Assembly (NCBI GenBank): GCA_034189385.1
Contig: JAXHVD010000004.1
Location: forward strand, 96,001-160,000
Reading direction: 5' to 3'
Length of the DNA stretch: 64,000 nucleotides
DNA from: Thermodesulfobacteriota bacterium
Lineage (GTDB): Bacteria > Desulfobacterota > Desulfobacteria > Desulfobacterales > C00003060
The notes below the pieces were generated by a model that was given only the letters and a program-made list of their open reading frames with translations, did no database searches and was not told the DNA's origin. A program made the translations under genes and the position numbers. This document shows, piece by piece, positions 21,863 through 38,049 of the stretch; position 1 is the stretch's first letter; each line of letters begins with the position of its first letter.

Positions 21863-22128
21863 ATGACGGGTCTTTTATTCATTGACGATGAGGAAGGGGT
21901 GCGCCGCTCAATCATTCGAGCGCTAAAAAGGGAACCATATACCGTCTATACAGCTGAAGAAGGGGAGACAGGAATCCGACTGGTTGAAAACGAACCCTCC
22001 AAGATCACCATTGTGGTTTCAGATTACAAGATGCCAGGGCTTGACGGCCTAGAGACGCTGGCACGCATTGCCGCTATCAACCCTGAAGTCACCCGCATCT
22101 TGCTCACCGGTTACGCCACCATGGAAAG
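21863..22128 (+). CDS. 5' part (REC domain) of a split response regulator-adenylate/guanylate cyclase gene
   Basis: LFIDDE...VVSDYKMPGLDG...LLTGYATME, then abrupt stop in AT-rich DNA before the REC KP motif. Confidence 0.92.
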
Positions 22129-22279
22129 ATAAATAAAAAAGACATGAATAATATAATAGTGCTCTCGCTGTAGCTGAATCAAATTATAAATAGTTTATAT
22201 TTAAAGCAAAGTCTGCCGTTAATTTTTCGGTGGGCTTTTGTATTTTTTGGGGGAAATTTTTTCGACTCTTCAAAAAGCA

Positions 22280-22288
22280 TGTTATAAT
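22280..22288 (+). promoter_or_regulatory. Extended -10 promoter at the left end of the element
   Basis: TGTTATAAT in an AT-rich context. Confidence 0.55.
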
Positions 22289-22336
22289 ATTATGAGGAGC
22301 TGGAGATAACGTAAGAAGCTAAAAAAAACAATTCTG

Positions 22337-22396
22337 AAGGCCTCGTCGGGGAATCAAACTCCTAAGCGTTATCTCCTCCCGGCGGGGCCTTTTTTA
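22337..22396 (+). terminator. Leader terminator/attenuator-like hairpin
   Basis: AAGGCCTCGTCGGGGA / TCCCGGCGGGGCCTT followed by a T-run. Confidence 0.6.
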
Positions 22397-22423
22397 TTCT
22401 GTGATGAAAGGAGGTGAGAGAGG

Positions 22424-22582
22424 ATGGACGAAACTTTAGAAGAACGAGAACAGCTGGCCCACGAGGAAGCGAAACTCATAGCTCACGAGGAGGCTAAACA
22501 GGGCCAAGATTATGAGGAAGCCTATGAGGAAGCCTATGAGTCAGCATACAACGAGGCGTACCAAGAAGCTATGACGGACTAA
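22424..22582 (+). CDS. 52-aa highly acidic protein with YxxA repeats
   Basis: Strong SD (AAAGGAGGTGA); MDETLEEREQLAHEEAKLIAHEEAKQGQDYEEAYEEAYESAYNEAYQEAMTD; below the ORF-track length cutoff. Confidence 0.75.
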   Translation: MDETLEEREQLAHEEAKLIAHEEAKQGQDYEEAYEEAYESAYNEAYQEAMTD

Positions 22583-22600
22583 AGCAAAGGAGGAAATACA

Positions 22601-22966
22601 ATGAGTAACGAGGAAGAAGTAGAAAGAAGACATTGGTTGGAAGGGTATGTCAATGATGAAGATATGTCCGGTGAACCCACGTCACCGGCGGAGAAGCAGT
22701 ACGAAGATGCGCTTTGGAAAATGGGCTTCCAATATAGTCTTACAGATACAGGTTTAGTCTATAAAACTTGGGATGCTCAAGAGGCCACAGAAATCGTGGC
22801 TAAGGTGGCCGCGGTCGTTAGGGAATTGGAATTGGACGAAGATGCGTTTAGCCTGAGTCACACTATTCAACCCCAGTGCCCAAAGTGCGGAAGCCTTGGC
22901 CGTTTTTCTGATTTTCATTGTAGGGATTGTGGGGCTGAACTTTTGCCGAGTGAGTATTGTGACTGA
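22601..22966 (+). CDS. Acidic hypothetical protein with C-terminal Zn ribbon
   Basis: AAGGAGG SD; CPKCG...CRDCG. Confidence 0.75.
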   Translation: MSNEEEVERRHWLEGYVNDEDMSGEPTSPAEKQYEDALWKMGFQYSLTDTGLVYKTWDAQEATEIVAKVAAVVRELELDEDAFSLSHTIQPQCPKCGSLGRFSDFHCRDCGAELLPSEYCD

Positions 22967-23060
22967 ACTACTACAATAATTTTTGGGTGGGCGCTCCTGG
23001 AGGGTTTTGCCAGTCTCCTTCCCTTCGGGGGCGCTCCACCACACGATGAAAGGAGGTGAA

Positions 23061-24108
23061 ATGAGTTTTGAGTCAGTATTTCCACCAGACTATAAGCCGG
23101 GTTTGACTGTTCGGGGTGGCCCAGGAAAGCACAAAAGGATGGCTGAGAATCGCCAAGAAACGCTCACGAAGATTCGGGAGATCGACAGCCAAATTGACTT
23201 CAAGATGACGCTCCGTGGCTGGTGTTACATGTTAGAGCAAGAATGGGGCTTGGCCAAGTCCGACTTCAGCACTAAGGCAATGCGGTATTTCGGTGAGTAC
23301 CGAGAACGTGGGCAACTTCCCTTGGACTTCTGCCTCGAAGACGACAACCGAGCATTCAGCCAAGGAGAATCGCTTGTCGATGCCGTAGCACCTGATGACT
23401 TCGTGCAAGACGCTTTTGCTTCCTTGCGCGACATTCACACGTACTACAAGCCGCTATCCTTTTGGAACAACCAGAAATACTATATCGAGATGCTAGTTGA
23501 AAAGGCGGACCTCGTTTCACTATTCCGACCTATCTGCTCCAAGTTCAATATCCGAATTGCTAACACTCATGGAAATGCCAGCTATGGTCAGCGCTATGCC
23601 ATGATAAACCGCTTTCGGCAACATGAAGAAGAAGGTCGCAAGCCGGTGCTCTTGTATTGCGGCGACCATGACCCAAGTGGATTGATGATAAGCGATAGGC
23701 TAAAGCATAATTTCAAAAAACTGGAACTGGCAACAGGATGGAGCCCAGACAATCTGCTCATTGACAGGTTTGGGCTAAACTATGACTTCATTGAGAAGCA
23801 CAATCTTTCTTGGATTGACAGCTTGATAACGGCTTCTGGCGAGAATCTCGCTAGCTCGCGACACCATGACTATAAAAAAGCCTACGTGCAGAGCTACATC
23901 AATGAGTATGGTTGCAGAAAAGTTGAGGCAAATGCCATTGTAGTGAGACCGGAGATGGGGCGTAAACTTTGTTATTACAATTCTGCGCTACATCGACCTT
24001 CATGCCGTTGAGAATTTTAAATCTCAGATAAAGGATTCACAGCGAGTAGTTAGAACTTTAACTGAGGATATCCTTGAAGCTGTGGCGGTGGCGTTTATTC
24101 CATCATGA
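23061..24108 (+). pseudogene. Topo VI-A/DUF2399-like Toprim-domain protein with apparent 3' frameshift
   Basis: W.NQ.YYIEMLVEK and LLYCGDHDPSG Toprim motifs; ORF stops at 24011 but a second frame ILRYIDLHAVENF... stays open to 24108. Confidence 0.65.
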
Positions 24109-24223
24109 AGAGGCATTAGGAAAAAGGAGGCAAGAGAGATTTGGTACAAAAAAGTACCAAAGATAACCCCAAGAGAAAACACACAAAACCGGAGACAAAA
24201 AAACAGTTAGAGGAGGCAAGACA

Positions 24224-24790
24224 ATGACAAAAGACGGTAAAAAAGCGGTGGTCGTTTGGCTAGGAACAGATCCATTTCATGCTGAGAAATGCTGGCCTGC
24301 CGCCGCGAAGAGGCTTGGTTATGATGTTATCACTGAGAAAGACGTTAGGCAAGGTATTAGTCTGATGACAGCCGAACACCTTCAAGTACCACGTCGCAAT
24401 TACGAAGATCACGGTATAGACACACCTTACAACCATTGCAGGCAGTGCGGATGCTTTTTATGGGATGCACCGGGGCCATCACTGCTGGAAAGATGGAGCA
24501 AGCTATTTTTAAAAGCACATGAAATCGCTCAAAAGGTGGGCATGTCAATCGGCAAATACTACACTGCCCGAAATGGCTGGATAAGTGGTCGCACCTGGAC
24601 GGATGCTGAAGCGATAGAGGCAGTATGCCAAGACGAATATATAAGTGCACTGTGCGATTGGCTATTTATTATAAACGGTGAAGACATCCCCACTCTCGAA
24701 AAACCAGTCAAGGATGCCCGAATTACGCCTGATATTATTGAATGGCAAGATAGGGCGAATCAATACTTGGCAGATATTGGTCGGTGGTAA
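24224..24790 (+). CDS. Hypothetical protein (CxxC)
   Basis: GAGGAGG SD, 188-aa ORF. Confidence 0.65.
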   Translation: MTKDGKKAVVVWLGTDPFHAEKCWPAAAKRLGYDVITEKDVRQGISLMTAEHLQVPRRNYEDHGIDTPYNHCRQCGCFLWDAPGPSLLERWSKLFLKAHEIAQKVGMSIGKYYTARNGWISGRTWTDAEAIEAVCQDEYISALCDWLFIINGEDIPTLEKPVKDARITPDIIEWQDRANQYLADIGRW

Positions 24791-25045
24791 GGCTATTGGG
24801 TGAGATGATTAACACATCACACTCAACACACATGGGGCGGCGCTCAGAGTTCTGGTGCCGCCTCTGTTGTTTGGTGCTTTGTTGGGAACCGTGAAAAACG
24901 ACAAAAAACATGAAAGCTCTCTTTTTGGGCGCACTTTTTTTATAAGTATTTGTTTTTACTAGCTGTGAAATTAGCCTTGTCAATAATGCAATCTTCGAGA
25001 TCGCTTATTATATTAAAAATAAAAAGATTAAAGAGGTGTAGTCAA

Positions 25046-25243
25046 ATGAAGTCAAGGCTATGGGCAGTGTTACAAAACAGGAAACTGGAACAAAAGAAAG
25101 TCGCCGCCGAGCTGGGTCTGCACCATGTACGGTTGAACCAACTGTGCAACGGTAGGGAGCCGACCAGATTGGAGGCGAAAAAAATATGTGAGCATTTTAG
25201 TATGGATGAAAGCGACCTATTTTCACCAGTCCTATTTTTGTAA
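25046..25243 (+). CDS. XRE/Cro-like HTH regulator
   Basis: QKKVAAELGLHHVRLNQLCNGREP; GAGGTG SD. Confidence 0.8.
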   Translation: MKSRLWAVLQNRKLEQKKVAAELGLHHVRLNQLCNGREPTRLEAKKICEHFSMDESDLFSPVLFL

Positions 25244-25255
25244 GGAGCACAATTT

Positions 25256-25417
25256 ATGAACACAGACTATCTTCAGGAGAAATACCCGCTTCAACGCGTT
25301 GCGGAAAACCCTGTAAGGAACGGCCCGGGGATTGTGTGGCTGCTCGCGAAGCAGATCGAGACCAACAGCCTATTGAAAGCGATTTTGAAAGAACTAAAAA
25401 AAGATACAGATGAGTAA
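25256..25417 (+). CDS. 53-aa hypothetical protein
   Basis: AAGGAG SD; MNTDYLQEKY...LLKAILKELKKDTDE. Confidence 0.55.
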   Translation: MNTDYLQEKYPLQRVAENPVRNGPGIVWLLAKQIETNSLLKAILKELKKDTDE

Positions 25418-25551
25418 AACAGTTTTCACTGGACAAGGCTTTGCAAACCTTGCCCACAATCACCAACCGCCGCAGTCGGTAGGAATGACTTCTGACCTCC
25501 TAGTCTGGGTCCTTCCTCCGGCTGTGGTCACAATCAGACTAGGAGGAAGAT

Positions 25552-26166
25552 ATGCGAAGGAATGGGAAACAACCGAACGAGATCAACAAGGCCAAGATTG
25601 CTCAAGCTAGGAGCCAGCTTCTTAGGTGGCCAAAAGATGTGGTCAGCGCGGTTGTGGGTGACGTTTTCGAGATACTTGCACAAGAGGATGAGTTCTCCGC
25701 TGTCCGGGTTTCTGCTAAACCCTATAAATGGCCACAGTGGATTTACAGTACCAAAAAGCTTCGACACGTGATGAACAGGACTAGATTTCAAGACATGTAT
25801 AATTATCTTTGGCTCAACAAGTTCCCCTTCATCAAGAGGCATTCACACGTGTTCCTGAAGGTGGGGGCTGATGCAGCCGACATCCTGGTGAAGATACGAA
25901 CAAAGGACATGGCCAACAACCTGGACCCTCCTTGTTCGAAACAACTCGTGAATAAGTATTTGGCCTATTTCTCGCGTATCGGGATAATCGAAAAACGGGG
26001 CATCATTGCGTATCAGAACGTGTATTGCATCGCGAAACAGGGAAGCTTTCATGAGGTGATTTCAGACAATGGGACAAAACAGGTGGTGGAAAGGCCAAGA
26101 GTTCTGCCACTGCTTACGGCGAAGGCAAAGAGGGAGATCGAAGGTTTTGACACTATTTTCTCATAG
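25552..26166 (+). CDS. Basic hypothetical protein, possibly a wHTH replication protein
   Basis: AGGAGG SD; TKDMANNL..CSKQLVNKYLAYFSRIGII wHTH-like segment; followed by an AT-rich palindrome cluster. Confidence 0.55.
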   Translation: MRRNGKQPNEINKAKIAQARSQLLRWPKDVVSAVVGDVFEILAQEDEFSAVRVSAKPYKWPQWIYSTKKLRHVMNRTRFQDMYNYLWLNKFPFIKRHSHVFLKVGADAADILVKIRTKDMANNLDPPCSKQLVNKYLAYFSRIGIIEKRGIIAYQNVYCIAKQGSFHEVISDNGTKQVVERPRVLPLLTAKAKREIEGFDTIFS

Positions 26167-26170
26167 CTCT

Positions 26171-26400
26171 CATTATTCAGTACTGAATAATGAAATTATT
26201 CAGTGTGAAGTCACTGAATAATGGGAATCTTTGGGATATATTATAATAACTAGGGCTTAAGCAATGGCGGACCTTAATGTAATATATAATCTAATTCAAG
26301 TACCCTGTATATATATCAGCTTTTCCTTATACACTTTTCTCCTTCCAAGTATTCAGGAAGAAAAGTGTATAGGAAGTGGCGCTAAAGCGCCACCTCCTTT
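26171..26400. repeat. Cluster of palindromes/inverted repeats (origin-like)
   Basis: Perfect 22-bp palindrome CATTATTCAGTACTGAATAATG; ATTATTCAGTG-N6-CACTGAATAAT; TATACACTTTTCT/AGAAAAGTGTATA; GTGGCGCT-AA-AGCGCCAC. Confidence 0.8.
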
Positions 26401-26529
26401 TATTTATTCGTTCTGCTTAAATAGAGGGAGTGGTCCTGAATGAAACACAACCCGGTCCTGAAGAACACTAATCGACAAGGTGTCGCGCGCCGCTGCTGCT
26501 GGTGGTGGCAAAGGAGGAACTAGCAGACA

Positions 26530-26685
26530 TTGAAGACTACAGATCCCACTGAAAAGATATGCTGGCGCTGCCGCAGGGAGCATGAAGGACCATGCCCCTA
26601 TGCCGCCCATGCAACCGTTGACGACAAACACACCGGCGCTGATTGCTACATTGCGCCGGGCACAGAGGAGGACAAGAAGGAGTGA
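26530..26685 (+). CDS. 51-aa Zn-knuckle-like peptide
   Basis: AAGGAGGA SD followed by TTG; CWRCRREHEGPC; GTGA overlap with the next ORF. Confidence 0.5.
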   Translation: MKTTDPTEKICWRCRREHEGPCPYAAHATVDDKHTGADCYIAPGTEEDKKE

Positions 26686-26831
26686 ATAAAAGTACGGGAC
26701 GATGGATCGAGCCCATTGTAAAACCGGACCCCGAAGTGCAAGAGCTTCAGAAACGCTCGGGCAACTTTGACCCCCCGGTCAAGAGAAGACCAGGAAGACC
26801 AAAGGGGTCAAAGACCAAGAAGAAGAAATGA
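26682..26831 (+). CDS. Small basic protein with AT-hook-like motif
   Basis: RRPGRPKGSKTKKKK; ATGA overlap with terL. Confidence 0.6.
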   Translation: MNKSTGRWIEPIVKPDPEVQELQKRSGNFDPPVKRRPGRPKGSKTKKKK

Positions 26832-28558
26832 TTGTACCCAAGATAGACAGACCAACCACACAAAGACTCCTGAAGATCCTGCGGGCTTTTATCACAAATG
26901 AGCAGGAGCAGAGCATGTGGCCCGTTTTGGATTTGACAGTGGACATGCTTCTTGATGACCCAGAGTTTCACTATTACTACACTGACACGTTTGAGTTTTA
27001 TTTGGAAAATGGCATTCACAACCGGATGGCACTCCATGCTTTCATTCGCCTTTTCTGTGGGTTCGACATTACAAGGCGGGGGGGCGTCGGAAAAGAGCCG
27101 TTTTGCAGTCCCTTTGATTTTGTGGCTGTCTTATTCTTTCAGGAGTGCCGGGATGCGCTGGCCATGGGATCACGAGCCAGCGGCAAGACTCTTGCTCTGG
27201 CCGTTTTGATTTACTTGTGGGCACTTTTCTACCCCGAGTGCGAAACGACAACCTGCGCTGCGACTAAGGATCAGTCATCGCGGGCTTTTTTGTATTTGCG
27301 AAAACTATGTACGAGCAGCAATGCAAGCAACAAACTTCTTAGTTCAAAGCCGACCGCTAAAGCTATCAAATGGGGAAACGGCTCTAGCGTGGAAATGACT
27401 ACTTCAAGTTTGGAGGGAGCGAATGCGCTTCATCCCAGCAAACTCCTTGCCGACGAATCGGAACTTTTGGACTGGAGGGTGGTAGAGGAAATGCTCTCGT
27501 GTGCTATATCACAAGGGGACATACAGGCGAGCACGGTCTTTCTGTCAAGTAGGAAGTTTCTGGACGGACCATTTCAAAGGCTGCTTGAGATGGCAAAAGA
27601 AAATCCCAAGACATACAAAATCTTCAATTGGAGTGCGTGGCAGGCCGTTGAAAGGTGTATGCGGAAATGTGACGACAAGGTTCATGGCAGGTGCGAACTG
27701 CAAGAGCTATGCAAGGGGCGGCTCCGAAAGAGTGACGGCCACTTGGACCTAGAAGACTTCAAGGCGAAGGTACGCCTTCTTTCCGATGAAGTTCTAAAAA
27801 GTCAATGGTTGAATCTCAAGCCGGTTATCACTTCGACGGTGTTCAATAACTATTATGAACCGGAAGTCAGTCTGATTTCACAGCCCGAAGATTTTCATTA
27901 TGATTTCACAGTCTGCGGTATTGACTGGGGGTCAACCAAGGCCAGCAATCTTGTTTTTCAACGATGGCTCGTGGATGTGAGCGACCTTCGTGACGATGCC
28001 ACGGGCCATGTGGATGTTGATAGTTATAAGAAGCCGACACTGTATCTTGCCTATGAATACCGGTCCGCCACTTCGGACATGGCTAGGCTGGCCAGGGCTA
28101 TACTTGAAAGCCCCTATAGAGAGGACTATGAATTGATCTTTGTGGACCCTTCTGGCAAGAGCCTGCGAAATGAACTGGCGCGTTTTGGGATAGAAACAGA
28201 GACGCCACTGGTCACGGGAGTGCAAGAAGGAATTGAGGTTCTGAAGGGGTATCTGAAACCCTATTGGTCAGGCAGGAAGCGCAAGTCGTGCCTATACATT
28301 TTAGACGGTTATTATCACGGTGAGCCAGACCTGGAGCCCACGCACAAAGAGCTTCAACTGATGCGTCACGTCACAAAGCCAGACGGCACCTTGTCACAGA
28401 ATATAGTGAAGGCGCATGACCACGGTGTTGACGCGGCACGATACGCCATAACTGCCGTGCGAAGCGTCATTGAGAGCCTTTATGCCCAGGACTTTGACGA
28501 GGATTTGGGACAGCTTGAACAGTTTGCCGAGACTTTTGGGATTGAAATCTTGGCCTAG
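26828..28558 (+). CDS. Phage terminase large subunit
   Basis: Walker A GSRASGKT, Walker B LLADESE, RNase H-like nuclease GIDWG...VDPS...DHGVDAARY. Confidence 0.88.
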   Translation: MIVPKIDRPTTQRLLKILRAFITNEQEQSMWPVLDLTVDMLLDDPEFHYYYTDTFEFYLENGIHNRMALHAFIRLFCGFDITRRGGVGKEPFCSPFDFVAVLFFQECRDALAMGSRASGKTLALAVLIYLWALFYPECETTTCAATKDQSSRAFLYLRKLCTSSNASNKLLSSKPTAKAIKWGNGSSVEMTTSSLEGANALHPSKLLADESELLDWRVVEEMLSCAISQGDIQASTVFLSSRKFLDGPFQRLLEMAKENPKTYKIFNWSAWQAVERCMRKCDDKVHGRCELQELCKGRLRKSDGHLDLEDFKAKVRLLSDEVLKSQWLNLKPVITSTVFNNYYEPEVSLISQPEDFHYDFTVCGIDWGSTKASNLVFQRWLVDVSDLRDDATGHVDVDSYKKPTLYLAYEYRSATSDMARLARAILESPYREDYELIFVDPSGKSLRNELARFGIETETPLVTGVQEGIEVLKGYLKPYWSGRKRKSCLYILDGYYHGEPDLEPTHKELQLMRHVTKPDGTLSQNIVKAHDHGVDAARYAITAVRSVIESLYAQDFDEDLGQLEQFAETFGIEILA

Positions 28559-28570
28559 GAAATAGAATCA

Positions 28571-29341
28571 ATGGCAGATTATGACGAGAGAAAATTTGAA
28601 GAGGTTCTGAGCCTAGTAGGCAAAGGCAACACCCTGGACACGGCATGTTACAGCTCTGGAATCGAACCGAGGCGAGTGAGAAGTTGGATCAAAGCCAACA
28701 GAGGAACCTGCGGGTTGAAATATAAGCAAGCCAAGGCACGATTCATAACGGAGCTAAGAAGTCAGATGTTGGCAGCGCCGCCCGGAGACAAAAGAAACGC
28801 GCTTGCCAGGGAATTGGCTGCACATGATCCCAGCTTTGCGAGGAGCGTGGCACAACAGCACAAGCGGTTGATCGAGCAGGAAGACAAGGAAAGGGACAAG
28901 GCACTTGAGCAAACACTTGGCAGGGTTGATTATGGCTTCGCGGGATGGAAGCTGAAGAAGCGGGACGGTGTAAGGAAGCTAAAGGCGGGCAATCTTGACG
29001 AGAAGGCACTTAAAACAATCTGGTCTTGGAGTCTGGCCGGAGAAGACAAGAAGGACATCAAAGAGAGATACGACTTCGAGCAGAGGATTCTTGGAAATGC
29101 TACCAAGCAGAGCATGAAACAAGTAGCAGAAAAAATAAAGGCGCTGATGGTGGGAAGGAACAAGATGAGCAAGGACGAGGAGCGACTTCTCACTGAAAAG
29201 ATAGTCACAGCAAAAAAGACCAAGAGTCCTTATAAACTGAAGGATTCAAATGGAGGGGTGATAGAGCTTCCAGCGATTGAGCTAGAGTGGAAACAGGAAA
29301 AGAAAAAGACAGTCAGGAGAAAGAAGAAAACAAGAAGATAA
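28571..29341 (+). CDS. Hypothetical protein with terminase-small-subunit-like N-terminal HTH
   Basis: VLSLVGKGNTLDTACYSSGIEPRRVRSWI...YKQAKA. Confidence 0.5.
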   Translation: MADYDERKFEEVLSLVGKGNTLDTACYSSGIEPRRVRSWIKANRGTCGLKYKQAKARFITELRSQMLAAPPGDKRNALARELAAHDPSFARSVAQQHKRLIEQEDKERDKALEQTLGRVDYGFAGWKLKKRDGVRKLKAGNLDEKALKTIWSWSLAGEDKKDIKERYDFEQRILGNATKQSMKQVAEKIKALMVGRNKMSKDEERLLTEKIVTAKKTKSPYKLKDSNGGVIELPAIELEWKQEKKKTVRRKKKTRR

Positions 29342-29951
29342 AGAGAGAATAGCGTGATTCGAAACGCTGGCAGGGATGTGCCTCCTTTTTCGGAAGTGGC
29401 CTCCTTTTTGGGTTGGCTAAACAATTCTCAATAGGATTACAAATCCAATAAGAACGTTTAATGCAATTATGTAATTAAACATAAGCATCACCTCTTTGAA
29501 AAGGATTTCCCTGCCAGCGTGCATAAGATACCAAAGGTAGGAAGTTTTGTCAAGGAGGGGGAAGAATAAGAAAGGATGATATAGTGATTGAAGATGGGGG
29601 GTATATGATAGTGGTCAAGAAGCAGGCACTAGAAAAATGCCTATATACCACACAAATAGAAAGCTTTTCTGAGTGCTCTATTTGCTACATAGGGACTGAG
29701 AGGGAAACCACATAAGAACATGGAAGCAGAGACAGGTTATAAGCACTTAAAATATATTAGAAAACAGGAGGAACAGCTTTCAAGTCTACATATTGGGGTG
29801 TGGCTACTCAGCAAGTCCACGCCCAGCTTGTATTTGAGAGCGACACCATCGGCAAACATAAGCTACAAAAGGCTTTACAAATGACATCGGAACATATTAA
29901 AATATGGCTGTTTCAGAGCCTAAAACACGCAACAGGAAAGGGGCAAATCGG

Positions 29952-30638
29952 ATGAAAACAGCCGTCGGTTATGTCAGGGTTTCAACCATCGAACAGGCCC
30001 AACAGGGTGTTAGCCTAAAGAACCAGCAGGCGAAGATCAAGGCATGGGCGAAGCTCAACGGATATGCTTTGAAAGACGTATATCGTGACGAGGGAATCAG
30101 CGGAAAAGCTATGGACAACCGGGACGGACTACAGAGTGCGCTCAAGAGTGTGGGCAAAGGCGATGCGCTGGTTGTTTACAGCCTGTCGAGGATGGCCCGG
30201 TCAACCAGGGATGCCCTGGCTATCGCGGAGGCGCTACAACACAAGGGCGCAGATCTGGTGAGCGTCACTGAGCACATAGATACGACAACTGCGGCGGGGA
30301 AAATGGTGTTCCGAATGCTGGCCGTGCTCAATGAGTTCGAAAGGGACCAGGTGTCTGAGCGCGTCACACAGGCGCTGGCCTACAAGCGCGGCAAGAATGA
30401 ATGGGTGGGCCGTGTACCGTACGGTTTCAGGGTACATGCTGGAAAGCTGGTGGAGGACACAGAACAGATTGAAAGCATCAAGAAGATGAAACGGCTTCGG
30501 AAAAGGGGCAAGACTCTGCGCGACATTTCAAAGACGTTTGGGGTATCACCCGCGTATGTTTTAAGGGCTGTAAATGTCAACCTGAGGACGCTGAAAGCTA
30601 AGTATCTCAACGGATCACGGCTTCAGCCTGTTTATTAA
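29952..30638 (+). CDS. Small serine resolvase/invertase with C-terminal HTH
   Basis: GYVRVST, DEGISGK, RDGL, SLSRMAR, EFER. Confidence 0.93.
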   Translation: MKTAVGYVRVSTIEQAQQGVSLKNQQAKIKAWAKLNGYALKDVYRDEGISGKAMDNRDGLQSALKSVGKGDALVVYSLSRMARSTRDALAIAEALQHKGADLVSVTEHIDTTTAAGKMVFRMLAVLNEFERDQVSERVTQALAYKRGKNEWVGRVPYGFRVHAGKLVEDTEQIESIKKMKRLRKRGKTLRDISKTFGVSPAYVLRAVNVNLRTLKAKYLNGSRLQPVY

Positions 30639-30902
30639 ACAAATGGTTTTTAAACAAAAAGGGTTTGAAATGGACTTAAACAGATTAAATGTGAAACGGT
30701 CACAGTGATATGACAACCGGTCAAACTGCCCCAGGCAACCAGCTCTTCCCACTCCGCAGGGCGAGGGACGGGGGCGCCGTCTTACATCACCACCGAAAAT
30801 CAAACGGGCGATGGACGGGGCACTCCGCAGAAAATTAAATTATATTAGCTGTCCCCGAAGCACAAGGAAAGGAGAAATACTACAAGAGGAGCGTGAAGCA
30901 CA

Positions 30903-31070
30903 ATAGCCAGTAAAGACACGTATTGCATATTCTGCAACAGACCCGAGCCACAGTACACCCCGCCAAACGCAGACACAGAAATCGTCTGTAGCCGGTGCGT
31001 TCAGCGCCTAGTAAACGCCACCCAGGAACAACTCTTGACCCTGTACAAGGTAGCACTGGCACGGGACTAA
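30903..31070 (+). pseudogene. Zn-finger gene remnant
   Basis: CIFC...CSRC reading frame starting at ATA after GAGGAG; an apparent continuation in another frame suggests a frameshift. Confidence 0.45.
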
Positions 31071-31147
31071 GCAGGTAGCCGACGAGCTGGCCGGAAGCTG
31101 GCTGCTACCGGAAACGCTAGAACAAATAGAAGAGGAGGAAGGAGACT

Positions 31148-31363
31148 GTGAGCAAGAAACCGGAGAGACTAGACCAGATCTGGAGCGAGCGAGACCTTTG
31201 CCGTCGTCTAGACCTGCCCGTCACCAAGAACGGTAAAAGCGCGAGGCTGGGGTATTGGATCAGGGGCGGCCTGAACTACGTCGAGAAGTCAGGCAAGCGG
31301 TATTTCTTTGAATCTGATGTCATTGACTACCTGTGGAGCCGATATGAGAACCGAGACGAATAA
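31148..31363 (+). CDS. Excisionase/MerR-like small wHTH DNA-binding protein
   Basis: WSERDLCRRL...LGYWIRGGLNYV...KRYFFESDVIDYL; strong SD. Confidence 0.65.
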   Translation: MSKKPERLDQIWSERDLCRRLDLPVTKNGKSARLGYWIRGGLNYVEKSGKRYFFESDVIDYLWSRYENRDE

Positions 31364-31521
31364 GGGCTGTAAGTTGCAAACCACACACACGGTTGGGGGT
31401 AGGTTTTGACTAGCTTTTATATAACTTTAAGGGGGTATTTTTCCGGGTTAATAGGGTTACATGCCTTTTCCTGAAAACCCCCGTTAAACAGCGGATAAGA
31501 AGCTTTTACGGCGTATTTACA

Positions 31522-31758
31522 ATGACTCAACAACAGACAGACAGGATCATTCTCAACGGCAGAATCACGGAGAACCAGGCCTTCGGCAAGTGGGCAGTGG
31601 AGCTGAACCACCGCTCCGGCTGCACGACCTTGGCGTCGTGTTACGCATCCGGAAGACTGCGGCTTGCGTCAATCCGCATGCTGCCCGGTGATTGGGTGAA
31701 AGTGGAGCTTTCGCCCTATGACCTGAGTCGAGGCCGGATTCTATATCGTTTCAAATAA
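31522..31758 (+). CDS. infA: Translation initiation factor IF-1 homologue (divergent, element-borne)
   Basis: [36 protein letters not shown] matches the IF-1 C-terminal signature. Confidence 0.85.
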
Positions 31759-31958
31759 CTACTCTACCCAGCGCAGCATTATCGTGGTGGCTTCCTCGCT
31801 GTGTCTGGTCCGGCAGAACCTAAGTCAGCTGTCGGAGGATTCATAAGGAAGCCACTAACACGCACGGTCGCAACCTCCAAAACCGGGGCGGCCCGTGCCA
31901 CCGCAGTTAGAATCGGGCCGCCCCATACTTTTAAACTGACAAAAGGAGTGAAAGAAAA

Positions 31959-32639
31959 ATGACAACAGAATATTGGCAGATACCGGCGGATCAGGATTTC
32001 CCAGCCGCGTCGATAAAAGAGGATTCTGATTTCGCGCATTCAACGGTAAAACAGATTGGCTATGATCTGCTGAGCGCGGCTTTTAGGCAGTATATGGCCG
32101 ACAGCGGCATCGACGTTGATGAGTTTGTCACCCGGCCAGGCCAGGGCCATTGGATAGTGAAAAAGCAGAAGATGAATGAGCACTTTGACCCATCCGACCT
32201 GAAATCAAGCCGCTGGGTGCAAGAGAAGACAAATCTCCTGAAGTGCTTTCTTGACGGCTTGCAGTGGCATTTTGACGGCTTTTATTGCGTTGAGCTTCCC
32301 CACGGGTCGTACCCTAAAATTGAAACATTGCTGCAACTCGAACGGGATCTTGGTGCAGCACCCGGCACCCTGGTTGACAAGCGCCTGTTTACGATCGAGG
32401 CCCAGACCGCTCTAAAACTGCTTGACAAGAAGGGCAATCCGTCAAAGCGTGCGAAGCGGTTGCCGCGACTCAAAGCCGCTGAGATGCGCCAGGAATTGAA
32501 GGCCAAGGTCAACGCCGCCAGAGTGAAAGAGGATGCTCTGAGGCGAAAGAAAGAGGCAACGGCAAAAGAACGGCAATTCAATAAAAAGTTCAAGGCGCTA
32601 CGCGAGAAGTTCCAACCGCTCCTGAACGCCTTGCAGTGA
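31959..32639 (+). CDS. Hypothetical protein with basic coiled-coil C-terminus
   Basis: AAGGAG SD, 226-aa ORF. Confidence 0.7.
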   Translation: MTTEYWQIPADQDFPAASIKEDSDFAHSTVKQIGYDLLSAAFRQYMADSGIDVDEFVTRPGQGHWIVKKQKMNEHFDPSDLKSSRWVQEKTNLLKCFLDGLQWHFDGFYCVELPHGSYPKIETLLQLERDLGAAPGTLVDKRLFTIEAQTALKLLDKKGNPSKRAKRLPRLKAAEMRQELKAKVNAARVKEDALRRKKEATAKERQFNKKFKALREKFQPLLNALQ

Positions 32640-32645
32640 CAATCA

Positions 32646-32745
32646 GAAACTAAAAGGCAGACTATTAGAAAACTAATAGGCAGACTATTAGAAAACTAGT
32701 ATATAGTATTAATATAGATTAATAATACAGATTAATAATACAGAA
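32646..32745. repeat. Iteron-like direct repeats plus AT-rich repeats
   Basis: AGGCAGACTATTAGAAAACTA x2 (23-bp period); AGATTAATAATAC x2. Confidence 0.8.
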
Positions 32746-32813
32746 GAGATTAACTTCTAAAGAAGTTAATAGGGCTGACAAGCCAGCCCAAGAAGCTAAG
32801 AAGGAGTTTTATA

Positions 32814-33050
32814 ATGGCTGTAAAAGAAACACCGTATTTCAAAGGACTGCTCGTGCCCACAAGTTGCGGCAGAAGGTCTACAGCATTTGAGATCCGAGAC
32901 GAACATAATAAAATAGTTGGCCGCATGGTCGTTGAGACACGAGCGTTAGTTGACCTGAGCGACGTTCCCCAGGACAGGGCGAAGTTTGTAGACGTGCAGC
33001 ACCTGCCGTCTCGGCTCAGTTTCCACTTAGATAACATGGCTGCGATATGA
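32814..33050 (+). CDS. Hypothetical protein
   Basis: AAGGAG SD, 78 aa. Confidence 0.6.
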   Translation: MAVKETPYFKGLLVPTSCGRRSTAFEIRDEHNKIVGRMVVETRALVDLSDVPQDRAKFVDVQHLPSRLSFHLDNMAAI

Positions 33051-33070
33051 GGCCAAAGGAAGGTGATTGA

Positions 33071-33298
33071 ATGTATAAGAACGTTACCGAATTTCACAAT
33101 GGACTGTTCGACAATAGCAAGAGTAAAGATGCTGTGGAAGGCTTCACCCGGAAATGCGAAGGCAGAAACCCCATGACTAAGGAATCTGTCATGGACGGCT
33201 TTGTGAAGGCCGCAACCGGCAAGCCGCCTAGCTTGGAACCGAAGCCGAAGCGGCCTGTTGACACCGTTGACAGGTTCGTGGCCGCATTGAAGGAATAA
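33071..33298 (+). CDS. Hypothetical protein with internal repeat (DAVEGFT / VMDGFVKA / VDRFVAA)
   Basis: AAGGTG SD, 75 aa. Confidence 0.6.
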   Translation: MYKNVTEFHNGLFDNSKSKDAVEGFTRKCEGRNPMTKESVMDGFVKAATGKPPSLEPKPKRPVDTVDRFVAALKE

Positions 33299-33460
33299 AA
33301 TAATAGGAGGCGTTCCTTGCTTCCCAAAAGGAACGCGGCGAGCGGCAGGGTTTTTGGCTTACCTCCTTTACCCTGCTGCTCGTCGTCGCTTAATCTCGGT
33401 GTGTGCGGTCCGGGGTCCCTCGGATACCTTGAGCGAGCCGAGGCGACCGCCGCCGCGCAC

Positions 33461-33595
33461 CTACTTTTTGCCGCGCTTGACGGCATGCCAGTCGATGTTG
33501 TGATGCTCTTTGAGGTACAGGATCACGGCATTGCGTAGGAAGCTCGTCAAGCTGCGGTTCTCGCTGTCGGCAGCCTTAACTGTGTTGTTGCTCAA
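33461..33595 (-). pseudogene. Arc/CopG ribbon-helix-helix remnant
   Basis: Manual translation KAADSENRSLTSFLRNAVILYLKEHHNIDW; N-terminal strand apparently missing. Confidence 0.5.
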
Positions 33596-33927
33596 TTCAC
33601 GTCTTGCTTTCTATGTGATCCATGAGTAATGCAATGCTCATAACAAGAGCCCCCACAATCAACCAATGATAGTCCTCCTCTTCCTTGTCATTACTGGCTT
33701 GCATTTTAGTCGCAATACTGCGTATGTAGTCTATTGATACGCCAAGTCTGGCCTTCGGTGTACCTGCTTCCTGTGCACTAGGTGTCAACTCAATGCGCTC
33801 CAAACGTTGTGAGAAATAATCTGCGAACTGTTCAAGAAGCTTTCCTATCGTCTTTACGCCACCCGCAGATCAGGAAAAAGGCGAAGGCACAGGCGAGGGC
33901 GTATAGGATCTTCAGGAGGATCATGGG

Positions 33928-34770
33928 TTATGCAGTACCTCTTCTGCTCCTTCTCCTGAGTCCTGCTAGACCTATGAGACCAGAGCCAAGGAGGAGGACG
34001 GTTGCGGGTGCGGGTACTGCATTAGCCGTAACTGTGATGTTGTCAAACTCACCGGCACCGATGCGATAGTCTTGATCCATGCTCGCTCCATCAATGCCGA
34101 GAAGCTTTTCAGCCAAAATGGCATAGTGACCGGTTTCATAAGTTTCAGTTCCAAAGTCAGCTATCCCCCAGACTTCAAGGTTGTAGGCGTCGAGGATTAT
34201 CGAAAGGGACACTACTTGATCGCAACCCCCATCAAAATATTCCAGGTTGTCGAGTGATCCGGCTTCGGCTCCCGTGATATATCTGGCGTCAAAGATCCAA
34301 CCGCCTCCCGTATACGGTGGCCAATGACCACCTGGATTGTTGCTCATGGCCCATCCCACTTGCCCTTTCCCCTCGGAAGTGGAATAGAACCTCATGGCAG
34401 AATTGTGGGCTTGCGGTGAATCCGTGGTCGCATATGCATCGAAGGTCAGAGTATAGACACTGCTGCAGGTCGTCAATGATTCGGGAAACAGATTGAAGGA
34501 GACGGCTAGACCACTGCATCCGTCTGTCAGCCGACCATTGGCGACCATGGAACCCATGTTAGAGCTATTTCCAACAAGTGTCCTGTCGCCTGTCCATCCA
34601 CCTTGACCTGAGAGGTTGCTTCCCTCAGCGTAACTCTCAAAGTCCTCATGAAAGATAGTTGCCGCCGTACAAAAAGACCCCAGAGGTAACACTAGAATTG
34701 CGGCCAGTGCGACCAGTAGGAGTTCACCCTTCAAAATACGTAAAGCCCGAAAGGGTTGTCTTGTTTTCAT
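33928..34770 (-). CDS. PEP-CTERM sorting-domain exported protein
   Basis: Signal peptide; C-terminal VPAPATVLLLGSGLIGLAGLRRR. Confidence 0.92.
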   Translation of the reverse strand: MKTRQPFRALRILKGELLLVALAAILVLPLGSFCTAATIFHEDFESYAEGSNLSGQGGWTGDRTLVGNSSNMGSMVANGRLTDGCSGLAVSFNLFPESLTTCSSVYTLTFDAYATTDSPQAHNSAMRFYSTSEGKGQVGWAMSNNPGGHWPPYTGGGWIFDARYITGAEAGSLDNLEYFDGGCDQVVSLSIILDAYNLEVWGIADFGTETYETGHYAILAEKLLGIDGASMDQDYRIGAGEFDNITVTANAVPAPATVLLLGSGLIGLAGLRRRSRRGTA

Positions 34771-35103
34771 TTCTCCCCCTTTGCAGAAAACAGAGATGAA
34801 ATCGTGAAGGAATAGTTCTGAACTCCCAACAGAACAGACAGCGCCCTGTCAGGAGCTAGGTAGGCAGATTTTTAGGTGTGTCTCCATGAGGGTGACCCTG
34901 GAATGATGTAAAAATACGGCCAAGAAAGCCGTCTTTTGACTGCCCGACTCCTCCAATATGCCGTATACCACTCTGCATGTGGGAAATCAATGGCACAAAG
35001 TGACCATTTTTTGACGCAAAAACTACCTATGGTTTCACGCAAAAACTACGTAGTGGAGTGGATCAGGAAGAAAGGTTGGGTCAGCTTGGAGAGATTTGAA
35101 AGG

Positions 35104-35259
35104 CTATTTCTTGGGCTTCTTCTTGTACTTTTTCAGAACGTCGCGGATCGCCTCTTCCAAGACCTCGTTCTGGCGTTTTTCCAGCGTAGCGGCCAGGATC
35201 TTGAGTTCTTTTAGAAGGGCCTTGTCGATGGTCGTGTTGTACATCTTGCGGTCAGTCAT
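35104..35259 (-). CDS. Ribbon-helix-helix regulator divergent from the recombinase
   Basis: MTDRKMYNTTIDKALLKELKILAATLEKRQNEVLEEAIRDVLKKY (51 aa); below the ORF-track length cutoff. Confidence 0.8.
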   Translation of the reverse strand: MTDRKMYNTTIDKALLKELKILAATLEKRQNEVLEEAIRDVLKKYKKKPKK

Positions 35260-35510
35260 GATATACGGGTATCAGAAGCCGGTACATTTTTCAATAAATA
35301 TAGAATTATCGGTATCTTTTTCTTGCTTTTTGTGTTATAGTTTTATAGTTGTCTATACAATCACACACTTCCAAACAGTACGATGAAAAAGAGTTTTAAA
35401 AACAATAGGTTCCCGAGATTCCCGGTGTCCGTGAGGTCCGGGGCGCCTGTACTGGCGTGGAAGGTCTCGGGTTCTTTTTTGGGTAGTCTCAATTAAGAGA
35501 GGGTCAGAAA

Positions 35511-37325
35511 ATGAAAGCAGCCATCTATTGTCGAGTATCAACACCGACTCAGAAAGAGGCCGAAACCATAGAAGGCCAGAGGGTCGCATTGACAAAATAC
35601 GCGGAAGACCGGGGCTGGGAGATTGTGGACGTATATGAAGACGAGGGCCTTAGCGGCAGTTTCCTAGAAGGCCGCAGGGATTTTCTACGGCTGCTTGAGG
35701 ACATGGGAAAGGGAGAGTTTGAAATCCTTCTGGTGGCCGAACACAGCCGTATCACCCGCTCTGACGACCCGATGGAAGGCGCTCTAATACTGAAGACTCT
35801 ATTGGACAACGACATTAAGGTGGCCTCTCCTGGGGCTGGCCTGGAGTCTGCTGATACCTTTGAAGGTCGCCTCATGTTCACGTTAAAAAGCATGTTCGCC
35901 GCAAAAGAAAAGACCGACATTCTTGAACGCTTCAAGAGAGGCAAAGCGAAGTTTCTTGAAAAGGGCATCTACCCCAACGCGAGAGTTTGTTATGGCCTAC
36001 AAAAGGTGGTTCAACGGGGTAAAAACGGCAAAGTCATAAAGCACGAGATCGTCATCAACGAGGAAGAAGCGGCGGTCTTGCGGTCGGTCTATGATTGGAT
36101 AGTCAAGGACGGTCAGACCATCAACTGGGCGGCTGCCGAGTTGAACCGCCTAGGCATAAGGACAGCGCAAGGTAAAAGGTGGAGTTCTCCCAGGCTTTCT
36201 GAGATTCTGCGGAACGAGGCTTTATGTGGCACAATGTATTGTAACAGGTACGTGTGGAAGACCACCGGCATCAGCCCCAAAGGGAAACAACAGCAGAAGC
36301 TTTTAAAGGTCAGGCCCAAGACGGACCCAGATGTAATTCATATTTATGTCCCAGCCATATTCAGCAAAGACGAGTTCAAGCTGCTGCGGGATACGGTCAA
36401 GAACAACCGCCGCCGTGCACGGTCAAAGAAGGACAGCCCATTCTTGCTTACTGACAAGTTGAAATGCGGCATCTGCGGTGCTCGTCTAGTCGGTGCTTAT
36501 GGTGGAAGTCCAGGTCAGAAAAAAGTGAACTATTATATATGCCACAACAGAAAGAAGTCGCCCCAGAGGCGAGAGCCAGACGAGAAGCCGTGCTGGCTGC
36601 CCATGGTAAACATGTTATCCCTTGACCAGAAGGTCGAACGTGATGTCTTGATTGACCTGTTTATGCACCCAAAGCGGACCCTGAAGAGCTGGTCGTCGGT
36701 GGATCAGAATAAGCGCCGCCGGGCCAAGCAGTTGAGGGATAAGGTGGCCCAGGCCGAGGAACGTATTGAAAAGTTGAGGAAAAAGAAAAAGGCACTGCTT
36801 CAGAAGGCCATAAGCGGTGTTGCATGGGAGGGGTGGAATGAGGCCGATATCAAAGAGGCCGTTGAAGGTGAGAGGGTAAAGCTGGACCAGCAGATCACCC
36901 TAGAAACCGAACGCAGGGACACGGCCAAAAAAGAGGCTGAAGCCTTAGAGGGAATGATTGAGAGGGCAAAAAAGGTTCGCAATGGGTCCAAGGAATTGGA
37001 AGAGGTGGCGGCTAGGCTTGGTGAGAAGATCTTGAATATGACCGTTGCTGAAAAACGGACCTTGTTGGACTATATCATCCCATCCGGCCATTATATCACC
37101 GTGGAGCCTATTTTAGATGACCGGGAAATCTGGTACGACAAACCCAAAGGGGTGGCCCGGACACTTAAGTGTGAGTGGATGGTGATGCCTGTCACGGTGC
37201 CTGATTTTAACTTAAAGGGGCTGGTTGCTGCCTTGCGGGAATACGATAAAACCGGAGTGATCCCAAAGGCTTCTGTATATTTAATGCAAAATAAGCATTT
37301 AAAGCGCCATTCAGGCAACCAATGA
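35511..37325 (+). CDS. Large serine recombinase (integrase)
   Basis: IYCRVST catalytic Ser, DEGLSG, recombinase domain (YG, LNRLG, W...ILRN..CG), Zn ribbon CGICG...YYIC, coiled coil; last 6 codons lie beyond the right att core. Confidence 0.95.
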   Translation: MKAAIYCRVSTPTQKEAETIEGQRVALTKYAEDRGWEIVDVYEDEGLSGSFLEGRRDFLRLLEDMGKGEFEILLVAEHSRITRSDDPMEGALILKTLLDNDIKVASPGAGLESADTFEGRLMFTLKSMFAAKEKTDILERFKRGKAKFLEKGIYPNARVCYGLQKVVQRGKNGKVIKHEIVINEEEAAVLRSVYDWIVKDGQTINWAAAELNRLGIRTAQGKRWSSPRLSEILRNEALCGTMYCNRYVWKTTGISPKGKQQQKLLKVRPKTDPDVIHIYVPAIFSKDEFKLLRDTVKNNRRRARSKKDSPFLLTDKLKCGICGARLVGAYGGSPGQKKVNYYICHNRKKSPQRREPDEKPCWLPMVNMLSLDQKVERDVLIDLFMHPKRTLKSWSSVDQNKRRRAKQLRDKVAQAEERIEKLRKKKKALLQKAISGVAWEGWNEADIKEAVEGERVKLDQQITLETERRDTAKKEAEALEGMIERAKKVRNGSKELEEVAARLGEKILNMTVAEKRTLLDYIIPSGHYITVEPILDDREIWYDKPKGVARTLKCEWMVMPVTVPDFNLKGLVAALREYDKTGVIPKASVYLMQNKHLKRHSGNQ

Positions 37326-38049
37326 GGGGCTCGACGGTTTTCTTACAAAACCCTTTGACAACAGGGAATTGCGCAACAAGATTCAAGACATTGTCATAAA
37401 AAAGCGACTGAAGCAATTTGTCTCTAATCAAGTCTATGAGGAAATTAGAAACGATCCTGCTGTCATGAACCCCAAAAAACAGAAAGTGACCATACTGTTT
37501 AGTGATATTAGAGGATTCACCGAGATGTCTTGGAAAGTCCCACCTGAAAAGATTGCAGAATTTCTAAATGACCACTACTTTACACCCTTGGGAGAAATCG
37601 CTTATCTGTACAACGGCACTGTAGATAAACACATTGGCGACTGTATCATGGTGATATACGGATCGCCTGTCTCCCATGAGGACGATATTGTCAGGGCTAT
37701 TGAATCGGCAATTCATATGCAGAAGACTTGTAAGGCCATCAGCAAAGGATTGAAAAAAACAAATGGATTCAGGCTCCGTGTTGGAATCGGTATCTGTGCG
37801 GGCGAGGTAGTAAGTGGTGTCTTTGGCTCCTTGAGGAAAAGAGAATACACGGCCTTCGGGCTGCCGGTCAATATTGCCGCTCGTTTAGAAAAAATGGCAA
37901 AGGGCGGGGAGATATTGGTCAGTGGTACGACCTACAAAGAGGTGTCCCACCACTTTGCGGCCGAGAGGATGACGCCGGCCATCCCCGTCAAGGGCTTGGA
38001 TGAGCCTATTCCCATCTATCGGATTCTGGGCCCTAAGGCTTCAACTTGA
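37305..38049 (+). CDS. 3' part (end of REC plus class III adenylate/guanylate cyclase domain) of the split gene
   Basis: AIQATNEGLDGFLTKPF (REC end); TILFSDIRGFT, DKHIGDCIM, YTAFGLPVNIAARLE. Confidence 0.93.

Follow-up and report, generated by a model that had tools for sequence, protein, structure and literature searches.

Why does a small integrated element carry a gene for translation initiation factor IF-1, and what might its product do? IF-1 genes on phages are already known: studies of huge phages (PMC7162821, PMC11748809) and of Lak phages (10.1101/356790) presume that they help to redirect translation. The gene considered here lies in a window of 64,000 nt, the whole stretch of DNA that was analysed, and is an unusual form of IF-1 that occurs where none was reported before, on a small, integrated, satellite-like element. 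It extends the known carriers of IF-1 from large lytic phages to an integrated element of 15 kb. An earlier note on this DNA recognized an IF-1 homologue on a mobile element and suggested, among other roles, that it melts the element's leaders. That reading weighed neither the known phage-borne IF-1s nor the signs that the element is decaying.

The limits of the element are given by an empty site. A contig of a related strain, from run X1 (possibly the source sample), joins position 22124 to position 37301 with four shared letters, which gives the element a length of 15,176 bp (Table 1). Without the element, the host gene that it interrupts is a single 336-codon frame. The host is a marine sulfate-reducer-type bacterium, the homologues of its proteins being labelled Desulfobacterales or Thermodesulfobacteriota. 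No capsid, portal or primase/replicase gene was found among the 22–24 element ORFs scanned, several of which belong to no family, such that a remote primase could be missed. The element has no tRNA or other translation gene, and a weak match to JetD is the one hint of a toxin or defence system that was found on it. At least one of its genes is damaged. The zinc-finger gene is frameshifted, with six of seven intact homologues matching its halves in two frames, and the Toprim gene probably is too, since the alignment with an intact homologue breaks off at 23972. The recombinase and terminase-like frames are open; relatives of the terminase, the recombinase and the 226-aa ORF were rare or absent in searches. 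Sequencing depth is 37 over the element and 37–45 on flanking contigs, and no circular junction is present among the contigs, which drop rare forms.

Table 1. Coordinates in the window of the element, its attachment sites, its genes and the host gene that it splits
Feature	Position	Strand	Basis or remark
Host gene, 5' part (receiver domain)	21863..22132	+	PF00072
Integrated satellite-like element, 15,176 bp	22125..37300		Empty-site contig and gene scans
attL, 4-bp core at left junction	22125..22128	+	Empty-site comparison
Toprim/JetD-like gene	23058..24011	+	phrog_6247, weak JetD; probably frameshifted near 23972
Cro/CI-type HTH regulator	24950..25243	+	Gene scans
Terminase large subunit-like gene	26828..28558	+	phrog_2, E 3.7e-10
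Possible terminase small subunit (weak)	28571..29341	+	phrog_1482, E 0.015
Small serine resolvase/invertase	29953..30638	+	PF00239, phrog_125
Zinc-finger gene of element family	30903..31236	+	Frameshifted, without standard start
Excisionase/AlpA-like HTH gene	31148..31363	+	65–78% identity within element family
Non-coding motif behind HTH gene	31429..31463	+	Partly conserved, 14-sequence alignment; variable slot next
IF-1 (infA) homologue, 78 aa	31522..31758	+	Intact; C-terminal half conserved, N-terminal half rewritten
Two stem-loops between IF-1 and next gene	31785..31926	+	Without Rfam family
226-aa ORF, no relative found	31959..32639	+	Family and homologue searches
PEP-CTERM surface protein (cargo)	33928..34770	-	Gene scans
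Ribbon-helix-helix repressor	35104..35259	-	Gene scans
Large serine recombinase	35511..37325	+	PF00239, PF07508 and PF13408; phrog_95; frame crosses attR
attR, 4-bp core at right junction	37301..37304	+	Empty-site comparison
Host gene, 3' part (class III adenylate/guanylate cyclase)	37301..38049	+	PF00211

What kind of element is this? Phage-inducible chromosomal islands (PICIs) and similar phage satellites are small integrated units that depend on a helper for excision and packaging, with an integrase, AlpA/CI-like regulators, no capsid gene and a primase/replicase module. The element resembles them in its size of about 15 kb, its att cores, its integrase at one end, its CI/Cro and AlpA-like regulators, its terminase-like genes, its lack of a capsid gene and its variable cargo. 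Unlike PICIs, it has a serine rather than a tyrosine integrase, a large terminase subunit and decay in at least one core gene, and the scanned ORFs include no primase/replicase module. A second comparison is with gene-interrupting serine-recombinase elements, such as the fdxN element (XisF) and skin. As in those cases, a coding gene is interrupted by an element with a large serine recombinase and reads as one intact frame where the element is absent. In contrast to them, there is no sign of programmed excision, and the empty site belongs to another strain; the match to the XisF model is below its cut-off. Excision would restore the cyclase gene and alter the C-terminus of the recombinase, whose frame spans attR. 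The split receiver/cyclase gene is a possible genetic switch, with no sign of excision in the assembled contigs.

Is the product an IF-1? The frame has an ATG start, a TAA stop and no internal stops. It scores 69.3 bits against the TIGR00008 infA model (curated cut-off 61.15; cellular IF-1 copies score 101–135) and 43.2 bits against PF01176 (curated cut-off 30.2), and it matches phrog_30201 with an E value of 1.8e-13. An AlphaFold model, for which a 34-row alignment was used and which leans on the IF-1 rows in it, has a mean pLDDT of 86.5 and the five strands and short helix of IF-1. In the predicted models the strands form an OB barrel, with the helix between strands 3 and 4. In a Foldseek search, the AlphaFold model has solved bacterial IF-1s as its 12 best matches (rmsd 1.5–2.2, the top six at 1.5–1.7). 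The Atlas's own model of the protein (pLDDT 0.73) matches an IF-1 cluster with a TM score of 0.89, and the nearest Atlas clusters are IF-1 clusters rich in viruses. The protein is net basic, with 12 K+R and 6 D+E. By sequence and predicted fold, then, it is a member of the IF-1 family, as the earlier note held, and distinct from the housekeeping gene. The note's description of the surroundings also stands: the gene is flanked by HTH, terminase-like and two serine recombinase genes, and gene scans of the element found no adjoining ribosomal genes, which puts it outside the ribosomal-protein context of a housekeeping infA. Compared with bacterial IF-1 (InfA; PDB 1HR0, 9FCO, 4QL5, 3I4O), the element protein has the same length, the five-strand OB fold and the C-terminal contacts to 30S and uS12. 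It differs in lying outside a ribosomal operon, in its N-terminal Lys, strand 1-2 loop and Arg23, all of which are changed, and in an insertion. In the model and the alignment, the four inserted residues lie within the turn that connects strand 2 to strand 3, the length of which also differs in 37/73 viral and 9/32 database rows.

The element copy is not the only infA of its genome; had it been, the earlier note's proposal would by its own terms have been refuted. The host genome (G000) has two IF-1 genes, the other of which follows rplM-rpsI (G000:C15:21331-21555; L001:1483-1707). The usual infA slot is empty, since secY abuts rpmJ on contig C64. The element gene is thus carried on mobile DNA beside a separate host infA. 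The C15 gene is a divergent genus-wide paralogue, present behind rplM-rpsI in 21 of the 25 genus genomes compared (L022-L045, L183-L187). Its strand 1-2 loop is changed, Pro and Cys precede Gly38, and it has Lys46. Canonical secY-linked infA was seen in only three of those 25 genomes; it is internally deleted in G007 (L033:9235-9360) and gone from G000, while G225 has three infA copies. An essential gene has apparently been displaced by a divergent paralogue in the host genus.

Where did the element copy come from? A recent duplication of the host gene is ruled out: synonymous sites are saturated, and the N-terminal halves agree at only 6 of 31 residues. In trees, including a quick tree of 145 rows, the element IF-1 sits on the longest branch with no supported placement, and they give no support for a phage origin. 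The AU test neither rejects a grouping with the host paralogues (p-AU 0.354) nor establishes one; G20 and S44 are shared with them, and G20 also occurs in 45% of viral rows. The best of 62 matches has about 54% identity across most of the length. No close relative was found among 1.84 billion representatives, where the best non-self matches proved to be duplicated or chimeric ordinary IF-1s. The variant's own patterns had no match in IMG/VR, and the 36 other genus genomes hold no close relative of it.

The halves of the protein differ sharply in how well they are conserved. A weighted profile was made from 144 other IF-1s: 20 canonical, 19 genus paralogues, 32 database and 73 viral sequences; duplicates, a truncated remnant and a viral row with a wrong start were left out. 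Against this set, which was gathered partly via C-terminal motifs and compared in a register (+2, then +6) set by hand from the model, the C-terminal half scores 93.7 bits, and 40 of the 144 others score the same or lower; the N-terminal half scores 9.8 bits, the lowest of all 145, the minimum among the others being 22.9. The earlier note's contrast between a C-terminal half that matches IF-1, the motif it quoted being present in the ORF, and a divergent N-terminal half with a short insertion is thus confirmed. The N-terminal half is nonetheless homologous to IF-1 on sequence comparison rather than junk: shuffled versions score −74.6 ± 13.7, and none of 20,000 reaches 9.8 bits. This rules out a C-terminal fragment joined to unrelated DNA.

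Which ribosome contacts are affected? The preprint 10.1101/2023.10.27.564398 lists where IF1 touches helix 44, the 530 loop and uS12, with a numbering that denotes the same residues in a 72-residue canonical IF-1. At the ten C-terminal contact positions taken from that list (35, 38, 39, 41, 42, 46, 60, 61, 64 and 66), the element protein is identical at eight and conservatively changed at two. It also retains the C-terminal Arg, which is called essential in PMC4611024. In contrast, all seven N-terminal contact positions from the same preprint (1–3, 16, 18, 20 and 23) differ, the register being uncertain at positions 1–3. Four residues, Q3, F19, W22 and A23, occur in none of the 144 other IF-1s. 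K/R is found in 137/144 of these at position 3 and in 114/144 at position 23, and is missing from the element protein at the first, while Arg23 is changed at the second. Changes in this region are not peculiar to the element. The host's own IF-1 likewise differs at positions 16, 18 and 20, and none of the 19 host-type paralogues, the host's own included, has P18 or N19; the loop change alone therefore need not kill the factor. Among the 73 viral IF-1s, 28 have P18 and 37 have a changed loop length. That the element protein works like IF-1 is likely from its sequence, though unproven because the N-terminal contacts are not kept. Ordinary IF-1 activity may be lost, because all seven N-terminal contacts differ, several residues are unique and the N-terminal score is the lowest of the set.

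The conserved half carries a record of selection. It agrees with the host IF-1 at 25 of 33 residues and at only 6 of 15 fourfold sites; fourfold-site agreement with 43 cellular rows (two of them duplicates) averages 37%. On this sequence comparison, the C-terminal half was under selection for a long period in the past, because its contacts are kept while synonymous sites are saturated, and also because neutral decay would not spare one half.

Is IF-1 a regular part of this kind of element? The zinc-finger/HTH module occurs in 8 of 300 genomes of the order, at three genome loci and 15 metagenome loci (18 were listed, and three weak matches were left out). In the relatives, the zinc-finger gene overlaps the HTH gene and is followed by the partly conserved non-coding motif and then by a variable gene. 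IF-1 is present at none of the 18 HTH loci (15 of which have at least 500 nt downstream, and which include three near-duplicate pairs) and at none of 12 further related element loci, one of them shared with the 18. IF-1 is thus ruled out as a conserved gene of the family, and since none of the related loci examined carries it, its sequence context marks it as one-off cargo in a variable slot. The integrases vary among members of the family. Loci L148-L179 are small integrative elements of Desulfobacterales-type genomes and sediment metagenomes, with a conserved motif, a hairpin and variable cargo.

What, then, would the protein do? The reading we favour, with about even confidence on the strength of sequence and models, is that it is a phage-type accessory IF-1, a weak 30S A-site binder that modulates initiation and is perhaps barely expressed now. 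It would have been picked up as one-off cargo behind the zinc-finger/HTH module. It would dock in the 30S A site by its kept face, through contacts to A1492/A1493, the 530 loop and uS12; docking would be weaker than that of normal IF-1, or different, owing to the changes in the strand 1-2 loop, at Arg23 and at the N-terminal Lys. It would then top up or tune initiation in periods when the element, or a helper phage, is active. IF1 is described as shallowly anchored, and as a modulator of efficiency and fidelity, in 10.64898/2026.06.26.734871. Several findings support an accessory factor: scores above both family cut-offs, the IF-1 fold in both models, an ordinary C-terminal score with the ten contacts and the terminal Arg kept, residues shared with the host despite diverged fourfold sites, virus-rich nearest clusters, variable loops in viral and host IF-1s alike, and the absence of IF-1 from the related loci. 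Against it stand the seven changed N-terminal contacts and an N-terminal score below the range of the others, the weakest Shine-Dalgarno pairing on the element, one frameshifted neighbour gene and probably a second, the lack of any relative of the variant in the collections searched, and the lack of tree support for a phage origin.

The expression signals bear on the strongest of the other explanations, that the gene is a silent relic: a captured IF-1 that was once useful and is now silent, or nearly so, in a defective element, its frame still open because little time has passed. Among 14 element genes, IF-1 is the one whose start pairs least strongly with the anti-Shine-Dalgarno sequence (−1.7 vs −4.2 to −17.5 kcal/mol), there is no usable Shine-Dalgarno site as judged by pairing energy, and no promoter consensus was found on the IF-1 strand. 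However, 38/85 viral IF-1 genes also pair weakly, so the weak pairing is a hint only. The damage to the zinc-finger gene just upstream, and probably to the Toprim gene, fits a relic, as do the missing replicase and capsid genes and an element depth equal to that of the flanks with no circular junction listed. Yet neutral decay would strike both halves, and here only the N-terminal half is rewritten while the C-terminal half is normal. Moreover, the strand pattern is kept, the insertion is a multiple of a codon in a tolerant turn, and the recombinase and terminase-like frames are open. We consider a silent relic unlikely, though a serious contender. Under the accessory-factor reading too, expression would be low and the element decaying, and the present effect on the host may therefore be small.

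A bolder proposal is that the protein has been repurposed as an A-site ligand. It would bind 30S by its kept face, lack the helix-44 loop contacts and not act as a normal IF-1. Instead, it would slow or bias host initiation, or shield mRNA from RelE/HigB-type nucleases of abortive defence. The sharp asymmetry between the halves fits the loss of one interface and the retention of another. PMC4931118 also offers a structural basis for shielding, as it reports that HigB, RelE, YoeB and YafQ overlap the IF1 site and probably cannot bind with IF1 present. The same paper notes, against this, that the toxins act on 70S ribosomes too, from which IF1 has by then departed. Apart from the weak JetD-like match, no toxin or defence system was found on the element, and related elements do without IF-1. 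That a satellite-sized element uses a half-rebuilt IF-1, with the decoding-centre docking face kept and the helix-44 loop swapped, as a dominant initiation modulator or to shield the A site from defence nucleases that depend on the ribosome is improbable. If true, a phage satellite would have made a weapon of a translation factor, in a host genus where a loop-variant paralogue has apparently taken the place of the original infA.

The last alternative places the protein off the ribosome, as an RNA chaperone or antiterminator for the element's own hairpins. IF1 has antitermination activity in E. coli. Nothing on such activity appears in passages of PMC12562117, PMC8307031 and PMC13030852. The OB fold, the net basic charge and two stem-loops directly 3' of the gene (z −2.6 and −3.0, for hand-picked stretches) would suit a chaperone, but the best-kept residues are ribosome and uS12 contacts such as Y60/D61, which a free chaperone does not need. 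The leader-melting proposal of the earlier note is of this kind. Leader 22285-22425 folds no better than shuffled sequences (z −0.63) and leader 35390-35515 moderately better than they do (z −2.63); neither shows a link to IF-1. Rfam has no match for either leader or for the stem-loops downstream of IF-1, and a C4- or P4-CI-like RNA there was rejected, with no match near the gathering score. Because relatives of the element have hairpins in the same slot and run without IF-1, the need for it to open leaders is weakened. A chaperone role is the least probable of these explanations. The identity of the gene, its mobile context and the existence of another infA survive from the earlier reading. 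Its suggestions that the protein biases translation or counters ribosome-targeting defence may hold, given the kept C-terminal contact face; leader melting is left without support.

How does the element gene compare with other IF-1s on mobile DNA? INPHARED has 36 records with IF-1, including 15 Lak phages, 6 Bacteroides phages and some host fragments. IMG/VR yielded 89 IF-1 places, of which 80 were kept, 22 of them on contigs of at least 100 kb. Of the 129 proteins that neighbour IF-1 in the 16 clusters on smaller contigs, 86 were scanned; these included photosystem, ribonucleotide reductase, RNA polymerase, ligase and helicase proteins, and no integrase was found among the 86. Two candidates were set aside. 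The IF-1 at the end of L048/L049 lies in host flank followed by rpmJ, and the one record examined of infA on C. difficile "plasmids" is a piece of ribosomal operon. Like the IF-1s of huge and large lytic phages (phrog_30201), the element protein is an extra IF-1 on mobile DNA with similar loop changes and insertions. Phage IF-1s belong to large lytic genomes that also hold further genes for translation or metabolism, whereas the element is 15 kb, integrated and capsid-less, and its IF-1 has an N-terminal half more divergent than any of the 73 viral sequences. The literature search found no IF-1 reported on a prophage, satellite or PICI, although supplements, such as the tables of PMC7162821 and preprint extended data, may bear on this; and, widespread as phage-borne IF-1 genes are, it found no functional test of one. 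A large cluster of cyanophage-like contigs also carries IF-1 (L059, L069-L126; 27 loci), in L059 beside psbA and ribonucleotide reductase; a narrow search found no literature on this cluster.

What are the implications of such a gene? The element IF-1 is a natural half-and-half mutant, with one face normal and the other rewritten. It could show which of the contacts that IF-1 makes are important, and whether the host ribosome is helped, hindered or shielded by IF-1s from mobile DNA. Its weight is limited, as a singleton in a decaying element.

Three other stretches of the element have features of their own. First, the leader at 22300-22400 has a terminator-like hairpin followed by a U run, with an upstream segment complementary to the loop region of the hairpin. 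It precedes a very acidic 52-aa ORF (22424-22582) and has no Rfam match. Second, a short sequence at 34790-35060, beside the PEP-CTERM gene, recurs on roughly ten further contigs of this genome, as well as on many run contigs. Third, direct repeats lie at 32647-32692 (a 23-nt unit twice, 96% alike) and 32712-32743 (a 13-nt unit twice), within an AT-rich spacer; this is possibly a binding site or an origin.
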